DNA of 62,937 bases, the filler included, from Octopus bimaculoides (Eukaryota): NCBI RefSeq assembly GCF_001194135.2. It is 5 parts of 5 records of this genome, joined end to end, with 100 filler letters (N's around TTAATTAATTAA, not from the genome) between each part and the next. Parts side by side here need not be neighbours in the genome. Positions count along the whole stretch, not along the records: positions 1 to 9,437 come from NC_068986.1; positions 9,538 to 30,901 come from NC_068988.1; positions 31,002 to 43,420 come from NC_069000.1; positions 43,521 to 57,540 come from NC_068983.1; positions 57,641 to 62,937 come from NC_068987.1. One strand, given 5' to 3'. The translations under genes and the position numbers were made by a program. Below are positions 61 to 58,608 of this stretch, piece after piece. Under the pieces are notes generated by a model. That model saw only the letters and a list, made by a program, of their open reading frames with translations, did no database searches and had not been told where the DNA came from. Every line of letters starts with the position of its first letter. Within the stretch, counting starts at the first letter, position 1.

Positions 61-136
61 TACAATTGTTAAAGAGGATAACAAGCATTAAGGCATCTCA
101 AGTGGTATGCAACATTATTATTAGAAAGAATTCGAA

Positions 137-192
137 GTCTTACAGCTGTTTCTGGGATATCCCAATGTATAGGATAGTCCGTCATCAGAGAC
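137..192 (-). ncRNA. Minimal type I hammerhead ribozyme motif
   Basis: Minus strand reads gtct-CTGATGA-cggactatcc(tatacattg)ggatatccca-GAAA-cagctg-TA-agac. Core intact, stem I gtct/agac, palindromic stem III ACAGCTGT, GUA cleavage triplet. The stem II closing pair is a C-A mismatch. Confidence 0.75.
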
Positions 193-480
193 AAATAGGG
201 AAAAATAGGGAAAATGAGAATAGTATATATTAATCAGATGACGACATCGAGGAAGGGGATAAAGGAATAAGGAGATGGAGAGGGAGAAGAAAATAGAAGC
301 GTAAAAGTTCATAGTTCAACTTTCCGATGCTCTTGTTTCTACAACATCGGAAAGTTGAACTATGAACTTTTACGCTTCTTTTTTTCTTCTCCCTCTCTAT
401 CTCATTCCTTTACTCCCTTCGTCGATGTCGTCATCTCATTAATATATACCATTTTCATTTTCCCTATTATTTCTTTATTT

Positions 481-536
481 GTCTCCGATGACGGAATATC
501 CCATAATCGGGGATATCCCAGAAACAGCTGTAAGAC
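481..536 (+). ncRNA. Second hammerhead copy with core variant CCGATGA
   Basis: gtct-CCGATGA-cggaatatccc(ataatcg)gggatatccca-GAAA-cagctg-TA-agac. The U4-to-C change probably impairs activity. Confidence 0.65.
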
Positions 537-770
537 ATTGAATTTTTCCAATAATAATATTGTATACGACTTGAGACGCTTACCTTGCCTTAACGTTTGT
601 TGTCCTCTTTAACAATTGTATATCCGCTGCGTCGGAAATCTGCAATAGCTCCATAACTATGTCTCGGGTATATCCTTGGAGCCCTAGCATACCTAATGTT
701 TTCCTAACCCCATACTTTGTGTGTGTGTATATATATATATATATATATATATATATATATATATATATAT

Positions 771-952
771 GATGGCGTCGTTGCGTACAGACTTCCAGTG
801 GAAGTCAATCACTGTTTCATTGCATTTCTTACGGTGAGAATAGAACGGAATCGGCTATAACTTTGGACAGAGCAAGTATCTTAAGGATATCTTCCGAAGA
901 GTACCAGCTTTTCAATTTTCAACACCCGAGCAACGCTGGGTAGTTTTTCTAG
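771..952 (+). mobile_element. Non-autonomous Helitron-like 3' end
   Basis: GC-rich hairpin cccgagcaacgctggg (925-940), then CTAG (949-952) and T. Same terminal motif as the Helitron end at 16027. Confidence 0.55.
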
Positions 953-2289
953 TACATACATATGTGTGTATGTGTCTAGATGTGTGTGTATGTGTGTGTG
1001 TGTTGTAAACAATGTTGGAAAAGGCTGTACTTCGTGTGAAACAGCCAAGTGCTCAATGCGTACTCGTGTATAGAGGAATTTAGACCCTGAGCTGTGGCAT
1101 CTGTAGAAGCGAACAACAAGATAGCAAACCTGCCGTATGAAAAGACACAACGAAATTTCATATTTTGTTTGGAAGTCACTATTCTCTCCTTTTTTGTTTT
1201 CTAATCAGTGTCGAGCGATTTATGAACTGATATTTTGCAGTTAAACATAAATTACACCATTTTCAACTATTATGGAACAAAGTGACTCTATCATGTACAG
1301 GTCGTACAATATCGATTGACTAACTCTATCCTTATTTTGCCATATGTACTTTGCGAGGGATGTTGATGCTTACTTAGTGACGGTACGTGATGAAAGAAGC
1401 TCATGTATTGCTGAAGCAGGGTCTTTTATGAGCTGTATGGCATTCTTTAATGGGAAAAAATATCACAGCTTCACCACCACCACCACCAACAACAACAACA
1501 ACAACAACAACAATAACCCCACCACCAATGACACATTCCTCTACTTTCAGGCCTCGTACCTATAATAAAAGGGATTATTAATCACTGCATTTTGGAGTAT
1601 AGAGTTTGGTGGTCNNNNNNNNNNNNNNNNNNNNNNNNNNNNNNNNNNNNNNNNNNNNNNNNNNNNNNNNNNNNNNNNNNNNNNNNNNNNNNNNNNNNNN
1701 NNNNNNNNNNNNNNNNNNNNNNNNNNNNNNNNNNNNNNNNNNNNNNNNNNNNNNNNNNNNNNNNNNNNNNNNNNNNNNNNNNNNNNNNNNNNNNNNNNNN
1801 NNNNNNNNNNNNNNNNNNNNNNNNNNNNNNNNNNNNNNNNNNNNNNNNNGAGGAGACACAGAAGAACTGGAACAACGAGTCGTGCTTCGTCGTTCGGCTG
1901 TATTCCTGCATCTCATAGAAGCTGGGTTGTCGTGGCACCACACATAAACCACAACACGCCGCGACCAAACATCCCATCACTATCTCCATCGCCACAATCG
2001 AATGTGGGTCTATGAGGAGGGGGTGAGTGGGTTCAGGGACGATGAAACAATTGTATTCAGAGGCTGAGATGTTACAGTAACGTGTCTCAAGGATTAAGTA
2101 TTGTCAGCAGATATATTTAGGGATCGAATCTCAACAAAAGTACCATATCTGGGGCTGCGATATATTGCTTAGAGATTAGTCCCTTCACTGTCGCCTATCA
2201 TTCAAGCATTACGTGTAGAATAGAAGTGTGTGTGTGTGTCTTTAGCCAAACCGATACGAAGTCAGCAAAGATTAGATTTCTAATGGGGA

Positions 2290-56800: not shown

Positions 56801-57129
56801 ACATTTAAAATTGATGTCTGAGTTTGTGTATGCATATATAGATATATACATATATAGATATATACATATATATCTGTCTATAATATATGTGTGTGTGTGT
56901 GTACATACATACATACTTACATACATACATACATACATACATACGTACGTACGTACGTATGTACACACGTATATTTGTGCATACATTCACTTATCCGTTT
57001 GTATACCATCAGTAAATCAGGATACGTGGGTGATAATTTTCACAATATGTCTTCATTTTCATGAGTTATTCCTGTAAATAATTTTTTTTTTATCGTAGTA
57101 GCTGCAATTGCTGCGTACTTAGAAAGTTA

Positions 57130-57490
57130 GATTTACATCCATGTGGTTTCAGGTTCAGTCCCAATGCTCGTCACATCAGGCAAGTGTCTTTCCGGGCTAA
57201 CCAATGCATTGTGAGTGAATTTGGTTGACAGAAACTGTGTGCGCTCCTTTGGTAGGAAGCTTGCCTCCCAGCCATATGGTTCCGGGTTCAGTCTCTCTCT
57301 CTCTATATATATATACATTTATTTAACTTGTTTCAATCATTAGTCTTCGGCCATACTAGGGCACCAACTCGAAGAATTTATAGTCGAATGTATCAATCCC
57401 AGTGCTTTTTTTTTTATATAAGCCTGGTACGCAAACTCACCAGCACTGATTATCAAGAGGTGGGGTGGGACAAACACAGACACAAATGCA
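57130..57490. mobile_element. Cluster of SINE fragments (two + heads, one - 3' module)
   Basis: Similarity to the 7192 family. Confidence 0.6.
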
Positions 57491-57584
57491 GACATACACG
57501 CACATATATATATATATATATATATATATATATATATATANNNNNNNNNNNNNNNNNNNNNNNNNNNNNNNNNNNNNNNNNNNN

Positions 57585-57596
57585 TTAATTAATTAA
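57585..57596. other. Synthetic scaffold linker
   Basis: 44N-TTAATTAATTAA-44N. Confidence 0.9.
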
Positions 57597-58210
57597 NNNN
57601 NNNNNNNNNNNNNNNNNNNNNNNNNNNNNNNNNNNNNNNNACACACACACACACACACACACACACACACACACACACACACACACACATATATATATAT
57701 ATATAATGCATGTACTATTCTCATTCAACAATGAGGTTGACAGTGACTTCATAGTTTAGGCCAGCAAAGCTATCGTTGCACTGCCAATGATGACTTTGCT
57801 GGTTGAAACTTCAAAGTAACTGTTAATTGTATAAGAGTGATAAATTTGTACTCTACAAAAGTATAGAGTAATCTATCGGATTAATGAAAAATTGTTTTTA
57901 TTATAACTGAAGATAAAAACAAACTTTGATATGAAAGTATTGTAGTTCGCTTGAAGCATTGTGTATTGTTTGTAAAGAATAAAAAGTTTAGAATGGTACA
58001 ACAATGCACTATAGAACAAAAAATGGACTATATACCTTATACAAACTTTAATATATATATATATATATATATATATGTGTGTGTGTGTGTGTGTGTGTGT
58101 GTGTGTGTGTGCGTGTGTACGCCTGTGTGTACGTATATATGTATATATATATATGTGTGTATATACATACATACACACGCACACACATATATATATATAT
58201 ATATATATAC

Positions 58211-58608
58211 GTATATAGTTAAATCAAGAAAAGAAAATGGAGAGTAGGAAGTTAAGTATTTATTATTAACAAATTGGTCAGCTTTGCTTCTTACAGCCAT
58301 TTCATTTAATACTCAATAATTCAATTACAAATTTGTACATTAAATTTGCAATTATGTGAAATGTGATTCTGTTGAAATGAAATAAGAAGTCCGCATATAA
58401 CATTTCAAGGTAAATCTTTTTTTTTCTGATGAAATTATGCTCACATCACATAAATACAAATTTAATGTACAAATTTGTAATTACATTATTGAGTATTAAT
58501 TGAAACAGCTGTAAGAAGCAAAGATGACCAATTTGTTGATAATAAATAATTGTTAACTTCCTACTCCCAATTTTCTTTTCTACATTTGACAGGATATAAA
58601 CTATATGC
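58211..58608. mobile_element. Fold-back element 3 (arms ~58211-58366 and ~58441-58608)
   Basis: agtaggaagttaa...aacaaattggtca...cttcttacagc...attacaaatttgtacattaaattt is mirrored on the right. A hammerhead overlaps the spacer and right arm. Confidence 0.8.
58422..58517 (+). ncRNA. Type I hammerhead ribozyme motif with an extended stem II
   Basis: tttt-CTGATGA-aattatgctca...tgagtattaatt-GAAA-cagctg-TA-agaa. Intact core, A-U closing pair, same ACAGCTGT palindromic stem III as at 137-192. Confidence 0.75.

Follow-up and report, generated by a model that had tools for sequence, protein, structure and literature searches.

The window analysed here, 62,937 nucleotides (nt) of DNA from Octopus bimaculoides (assembly GCF_001194135.2; five parts joined end to end, filler included), contains three fold-back elements, designated E1, E2 and E3, that each carry a hammerhead ribozyme motif. 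The window has a GC content of 0.37, is gappy (6878 N) and is rich in (TA)n, (CA)n and transposon debris; the three elements together make up 1627 of its 56059 non-N bases. Self-BLAST of the window after repeat masking detected their inverted repeats at 65-616 (84%; E1), 10052-10210 versus 10349-10507 (90.6%; E2) and 58218-58590 (78%; E3). Ungapped arm-to-arm identity is 0.90 for E1 and 0.89 for both E2 and E3. Because a fold-back artefact of the assembly would give identical arms, this divergence of about 10% rules out such an artefact. A further inverted repeat of 619 nt (54892-55510 and 59879-60497) was rejected, as it consists of two N gaps. The parts of the three elements are as follows.

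62..329, minus strand: left arm of E1, an outward-reading, inverted copy of the element's 3' end that ends at (TA)n without an extension
141..188, minus strand: left hammerhead of E1, with exact core, stem I GTCT/AGAC, palindrome CAGCTG and a predicted cut after GUA at 141
330..344, no strand assigned: inversion junction of E1, a near-palindrome containing a 4-bp hairpin (333-344); homology to the family starts at about 335 (loose ends before 335)
345..619, plus strand: right arm of E1, with a pyrimidine-rich stretch, the hammerhead and a first 3' end at about 619-623
485..532, plus strand: right hammerhead of E1, with a U4C core change and a predicted cut after 532
620..717, plus strand: one-sided extension (tail) of E1, in which family sequence continues to about 690 or beyond and gives way to (TG)n(TA)n
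10016..10051, minus strand: putative one-sided tail of E2, flanked by the end of the arm and by a Tc1-type transposase fragment (boundary approximate)
10052..10329, minus strand: long arm of E2, outward to the left; its inner 80 nt contain a short open frame with its stop immediately ahead of the hammerhead
10215..10247, minus strand: hammerhead of E2, with exact core, palindrome CCCGGG, a predicted cut after GUC and a weak stem I
10330..10507, plus strand: short inverted arm of E2, beginning within the 3' half of the ribozyme and lacking the CTGATGA core
58218..58362, minus strand: short inverted arm of E3, beginning inside stem II, with the palindrome broken, ending at (TA)n
58363..58596, plus strand: long arm of E3, outward to the right
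58426..58513, plus strand: hammerhead of E3, with exact core, 69-nt stem II, palindrome CAGCTG, a predicted cut after GUA and a weak, U-rich stem I
58597..58725, plus strand: one-sided extension of E3, about 130 nt up to (TA)n, by its sequence likely the tail

Both strands were scanned for the exact motif, defined as CTGANGA ... GAAA followed by a 6-nt palindrome and T-H. It occurs three times in the window, once per fold-back: from 188 to 141 on the minus strand (E1), from 10247 to 10215 on the minus strand (E2) and from 58426 to 58513 on the plus strand (E3). A fourth copy with the U4C change lies in the right arm of E1 (485 to 532, plus strand), the only element with the motif in both arms. 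The first statement of the initial annotation, that three fold-backs each carry a hammerhead motif, is thus upheld, and a comparison of motif frequency with shuffled sequence points the same way: 500 dinucleotide-preserving shuffles of the window contained 0.064 motifs on average, at least one in 30/500, at least two in 2/500 and the observed three in 0/500. The chance that all three motifs fall inside fold-backs is about 2e-5. Four further candidates, three with one mismatch (2012, 5517 and 28768) and one under a relaxed motif (58874), were judged to be chance matches, having an altered core along with weak stems or no fold-back. Outside the motif E1, E2 and E3 differ in sequence, as also annotated, with none of ten pairwise segment comparisons significant (the best was reached by 74/1000 shuffles). 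A likeness between the extensions of E1 and E3 was likewise rejected as non-significant (161/1000 shuffles).

Every hammerhead reads outward from the centre of its fold-back, which means that the arms are joined head-to-head, with about 80-160 nt between each predicted cut site and the arm end. The stems are of uneven quality. Only one of the three exact motifs, that of E3, passed a strict stem filter; with the core held open, stem I forms in both E1 copies and in neither E2 nor E3, and the base of stem II is a C.A mismatch in E1 and E2. No hammerhead family was found among the 150 listed of 242 matches in an Rfam scan, which were solely of microsatellite- or hairpin-driven microRNA (miRNA) type and all below gathering score. 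The centre of E1 is matched by plant miRNA models, also below gathering scores.

The two halves of E1 are almost mirror images: (TA)n borders the left one, and about 100 nt of additional sequence separates the right one from (TG)n(TA)n. Over the 40 innermost columns of the arm alignment (345-384 and 290-329), 38 of 40 positions are identical, compared with 31-37 farther out. This high identity is possibly a trace of snap-back synthesis or conversion and is non-significant on its own. In E2, the open frame within the inner 80 nt is a possible candidate for the end of an open reading frame (ORF). We take it to resemble a Penelope/Poseidon C-terminal pattern, a likeness that was counted neither way, as the searches were empty but used weak queries of 30-43 aa. 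The left end of E2 adjoins a Tc1-type transposase fragment (9720-10010, minus strand; Pfam HTH_Tnp_Tc3_2, E 2.3e-09), the match starting at residue 26 of the frame 9720-10064. On its other side lies a mariner-type element (10541-11404), internally deleted, with terminal inverted repeats of about 210 bp (87%) and transposase remnants.

The E1 family in DNA contigs and RNA reads

The right arm and extension of E1 (330-717) served as the query, at 80% likeness, against DNA contigs from runs X1 and X13, the latter from a second organism, and against RNA reads from X21 and X22, about 6% of two ordinary RNA-seq runs, a type of library that loses small circles. The right arm is matched by 2538 contigs in X1 and 3079 in X13. 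Summed contig depth, a sign of abundance and not a copy count, has one peak over the 3' half of the ribozyme, at about 2.3e5, and another of about 1.9e5 at 590-615, compared with 33-70 for 16 single contigs listed. The data fit an E1 family that is very abundant in two species; of the very high genome-wide copy number suggested initially, the abundance is supported for this family. At position 486 the majority of the DNA depth carries T, i.e., the canonical core. In a separate observation, position 492 is T in 149/224 reads of X21 and 89/245 of X22, but in only about 7% of the DNA depth; with T at 492, the C.A at the base of E1 stem II (492/520) would become U-A.

At the 3' end of the family, loose ends of (TA)n stand behind 623 in 36 (X1) and 34 (X13) contigs, and family sequence continues past 659 in 25 and 29 contigs (X1, X13) and in 317 and 161 RNA reads (X21, X22). 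Copies thus either stop at about 623 or run through the extension, which marks the extension as the tail of the family. Upstream of 335, 319 and 222 RNA reads enter sequence unlike the left arm of E1. The best-supported 15 of 46 joints include three strand switches, each in a single contig and at three different places, and no high-depth strand-switch joint at the centre of E1, a weak test because contigs break at hairpins. RNA-seq ends at the predicted cut site, as sought by the initial annotation, did not appear: neither starts nor ends pile up at any position of the E1 arm in X21 or X22, cut site included. No go-back (circle-type) joint was among the RNA joints listed for these libraries.

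Origin of the fold-backs

We consider it highly probable that each fold-back goes back to a Penelope-like retroelement (PLE) with an endonuclease, as a dead insertion with heavy 5' truncation in which the ribozyme-containing 3' end is joined to an inverted second copy, and that the three derive from three unrelated families. The arms are joined head-to-head, the inner breakpoints of E2 and E3 are unequal, and an extension follows on one side only. E1 and E3 are flanked by (TA)n, and the E1 family has two 3' ends, high abundance and an upstream continuation. As the Pfam scan and protein searches found no PLE protein, PLE membership rests on this anatomy, by which the arms are likely PLE end sequences, in agreement with the link first proposed. 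The (TA)n target and the hammerhead, and only these, suggest a Neptune-like clade. The lack of an ORF is most likely a consequence of 5' truncation rather than the mark of an ORF-less family.

From published PLE biochemistry we infer the following course from nicking to joining. The GIY-YIG/reverse transcriptase (RT) protein of the element would nick AT-rich DNA, and cDNA would be primed past the hammerhead, at either of two sites, leaving a tail on one side only. Synthesis would abort early, and the inverted partner could stem from second-strand priming or from snap-back self-priming, the E1 junction being a near-palindrome. The hammerhead would be a passenger in these scars; in the parent element it would dimerize via its 8-nt palindrome, either between tandem pseudo-long terminal repeats (pLTRs) or in trans. 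In constrained folds, this palindrome favours the trans dimer over two monomers by 13-16 kcal/mol, a prediction in line with the initial view that the short palindromic stem III acts as a dimer. In folds of whole elements the core is largely paired and, together with the decayed stems, this predicts that the hammerheads of the scars are inactive.

Several points weigh against this reading. No GIY-YIG domain was found in a Pfam scan of 131 window frames (129 of 255 non-repetitive frames of at least 50 amino acids (aa), plus two short ones), and the single RVT_1 match (5088-5450) lies at least 4 kb from E1, E2 and E3. Protein searches with the tail frame of E1 were empty, as were those with the candidate ORF end of E2, where queries of 30-43 aa are weak. 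The extensions of E1 (about 100 nt) and E3 (about 130 nt) exceed the published 30-40 bp, the conserved G10.1-C11.1 pair directly before GAAA is missing in E1 and E2, and no target-site duplication is definable at the three elements. Read evidence covers the E1 family, with sequence alone for E2 and E3; the RNA reads that run on upstream show 97-98% agreement, so that they may derive from one or few loci, and a fixed fold-back junction could escape detection in contigs that break at hairpins. A 30-letter loose end upstream of E1 would resemble an endonuclease C-terminal motif only with assumed frameshifts and was not counted.

Among the alternatives, it is unlikely that one or more of the elements are non-autonomous PLE derivatives of fixed structure, that is, ORF-less fold-backs copied in trans by PLE protein. 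In its favour, no ORF adjoins any of the elements, the E1 family is highly abundant and the read evidence is restricted to that family; moreover, putatively non-autonomous PLEs (PMC8557442) and PLE-derived retrozymes (10.64898/2026.07.22.740005) are on record. However, the best 15 of 46 joints hold no high-depth strand switch at the E1 centre, upstream of which RNA reads run on, the short arm interrupts the ribozyme in both E2 and E3, the core is predicted to be paired within a fold-back RNA, and there is neither a tandem same-strand arrangement nor a pile-up of read ends. A short, linear parent of the non-autonomous kind, with inversions that vary between insertions, is a conceivable variant.

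The initial annotation, to which this alternative corresponds, raised the possibility of a retrozyme-like non-autonomous class. Non-LTR retrozymes, as characterized in 10.64898/2026.07.22.740005 and PMC7229834, are tandem same-strand repeats that require two hammerheads per RNA, and the former argues that they derive from PLE pLTRs. The elements of the window lack tandem head-to-tail hammerheads: there is at most one motif per strand per element, and within the window the arms recur as inverted copies only, with no direct repeats. As E1 has its hammerheads on opposite strands and E2 and E3 have one each, two never occur in the same transcript, and an RNA that reads through an element is predicted to form a fold-back with the core paired. 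E1-family transcripts also run upstream of the fold-back centre. A retrozyme-like class is therefore not supported.

Less probable still are miniature inverted-repeat transposable elements (MITEs) or other fold-back elements of DNA transposons, with a TA target duplication and an incidental or captured hammerhead. In many copies the sequence of the E1 family continues for about 70-100 nt beyond one arm end, and it also runs upstream past the centre, so that family sequence does extend beyond the terminal inverted repeats, long as these are and although the arm ends of E1 abut TA. The window does hold many Tc1/mariner fragments, yet the true mariner-type element next to E2 (10541-11404) has no such motif. 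In addition, the arms are unequal inside E2 and E3, and three unrelated elements have only the hammerhead in common, oriented alike and similarly far from the end. A last alternative, with motifs that match by chance in palindromic, AT-rich DNA or fold-backs created by the assembly, could appeal to the weak stem I of two of the three exact motifs and to a gappy assembly with 6878 N, but is refuted at the level tested and of negligible probability, as no shuffle reached three motifs, all three lie inside fold-backs, the arms differ by about 10% and coverage of the E1 family is highest over the 3' half of the hammerhead.

The 60-nt skip in RNA reads and neighbouring sequence

Transcripts of the E1 family include a form that departs from the DNA contigs.

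527..586, no strand assigned: 60-nt stretch skipped in RNA reads only (526 joined to 587, joint uncertain by 2 nt), whose loss removes the cut site together with the 3' strand of stem I

The skip is supported by 115 reads with 54 starts in X21 and 44 reads with 32 starts in X22, and by 0 contigs in X1 and X13, DNA runs that come from samples other than the RNA. In the window copy it would open a frame from the core ATG to the end of the tail, stops falling from 2 in 76 codons to 0 in 56. A more novel reading would be an RNA processing step in the E1 family that drops the cut site and joins the core ATG to the tail in frame, the element then switching between cleaved and translated RNA; if true, the PLE hammerhead would have a role tied to translation control. 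We hold this to be quite improbable. The skip ends are not GT..AG on the ribozyme strand of the window copy, a GC..AG pair on the antisense strand is 1 nt away from them, the libraries look unstranded, with first mates about equal on both strands, and the tail frame of E1 has no protein match. The skip reads are equally well explained by a deletion in one genomic copy that is expressed; such a deletion, or antisense exonisation, is likelier than a native switch. In favour of the switch, besides the restriction of the skip to RNA, the splice-donor consensus GTAAG overlaps the cut-site GUA in E1 (530) and E3 (58511); in E2 (10204) it follows the cut by about 11 nt. About 80 nt downstream in E3, visual inspection shows a pyrimidine tract that ends in CAG, which a pattern search had missed.

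The remainder of the window is rich in transposon remains. A broken non-LTR retrotransposon at 3803-5450 (minus strand) contains the RVT_1 match, and the frames downstream in it presumably resemble those of a long interspersed nuclear element (LINE) with a restriction-like endonuclease. Helitron-like PIF1 helicase fragments (Pfam PIF1, Pif1_2B_dom) occupy 16300-18763 (minus strand), a hAT dimerisation domain 20796-21392 (minus strand), a DDE_3 transposase fragment 15277-15669 (plus strand) and more mariner-like fragments 39800-40525 (minus strand). Dispersed families of repeats resembling short interspersed nuclear elements (SINEs), some as inverted pairs, are found in three groups, at 36131-36349, 42805-42983, 44451-44766 and 3515-3639, at 7209-7542, 32947-33451 and 61841-61984, and at 50552-51072 and 53590-53773. 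Host exon(s) at 13473-13940 (minus strand) are related to an Octopus sinensis protein with PF04488 (74% identity over 74 aa), the Octopus sinensis relative of the exon at 13506-13727, also at 74% identity, being the sole named match of three. A 107-nt imperfect palindrome (28352-28458) has no hammerhead motif, and a 69-nt identical direct repeat (53858-53926 and 54106-54174) across an N gap is likely an assembly overlap.

Comparison with known Penelope-like elements

Canonical endonuclease-bearing PLE insertions (Penelope/Poseidon, Neptune, Nematis, Hydra) are described in PMC8557442 and PMC3846280 as a pLTR, an inverted 5'-truncated copy adjacent to the 5' end and a one-sided tail of 30-40 bp (length from PMC8557442), which bears out the initial statement that inverted pLTRs are typical of PLEs. 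According to PMC8557442, canonical clades carry hammerheads in their pLTRs, and Neptune and Naiad show a (TA)n bias; PMC3846280 reports palindromes at head-to-head junctions and proposes self-priming. E1-E3 agree in their head-to-head, inverted 3' ends, the hammerhead near the 3' end and the one-sided extension, as do the junction palindrome of E1 and the (TA)n target. All motifs point outward and the inner breakpoints of E2 and E3 are unequal, as in an inverted 5'-truncated copy; a one-sided tail with two alternative 3' ends is documented by reads for the E1 family, and a tail is suggested by sequence for E2 and E3. Unlike these PLE units, E1-E3 retain no ORF, and the extensions of about 100-130 nt are longer. 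The Poseidon experiments in PMC11167929 offer a basis for the layout: the protein cuts and extends both strands at AT-rich DNA, and its RT has two internal start sites past the hammerhead, about 111-118 nt into the ORF, which would account for the one-sided tail and fits the 80-160 nt between cut sites and arm ends in the window. There, hammerhead cleavage was protein-assisted, dispensable for insertion in vitro and left no RNA-seq read ends.

The hammerheads likewise have close relatives. PMC4209133, in its account of minimal hammerheads and Fig. S3, reports thousands per genome, including variants with a small palindromic helix III, and dimer-cleaving PLE hammerheads are attributed to Lunse et al. 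by a passage of PMC6765202. E1-E3 have the type I layout with a short palindromic helix III near the 3' end, the CUGANGA core, GAAA-N-palindrome-N-U-H, a U-rich upstream region, a short stem I and a long stem II. They differ in the extra A before GAAA in E1 and E2, i.e., C.A instead of G10.1-C11.1, and in the 69-nt stem II of E3. No cephalopod row was found among the examined rows of Fig. S3. Dual hammerheads on opposite strands, 100-700 bp apart, were already interpreted there in 2014 as truncated PLEs, so our reading of this arrangement is not new. With non-LTR retrozymes, as outlined in the sources cited above, E1-E3 share the lack of an ORF, a type I hammerhead and a PLE-related origin; they differ as inverted pairs, without a circle-type joint among the RNA joints listed, from tandem elements with circular RNA.

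In octopus, the Naiad rows in File S1 of PMC8557442 also concern a cephalopod PLE with (TA)n preference, yet Naiad, as described there, lacks canonical hammerheads, unlike E1-E3; the supplement text of that paper, in which long cells may be incomplete, contains neither of the 12-nt stem III motifs. Penelope-like families are annotated in Octopus vulgaris in a paper whose main text lacks the words 'ribozyme' and 'hammerhead' (PMC13282606). No description of octopus PLE hammerheads was found in the literature searched, with Dfam and Repbase outside the search, so that prior cataloguing may exist. E1-E3 are real, and most likely PLE-linked insertion debris of a known sort rather than a new class of mobile RNA. 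What they add are three probably uncatalogued octopus PLE families, with a hammerhead sub-variant that has C.A at the base of stem II, and hairpins open to mis-annotation as MITEs or microRNAs. Abundant scars with paired breakpoints also provide material on how PLE inversions form, by second-strand priming or by snap-back.

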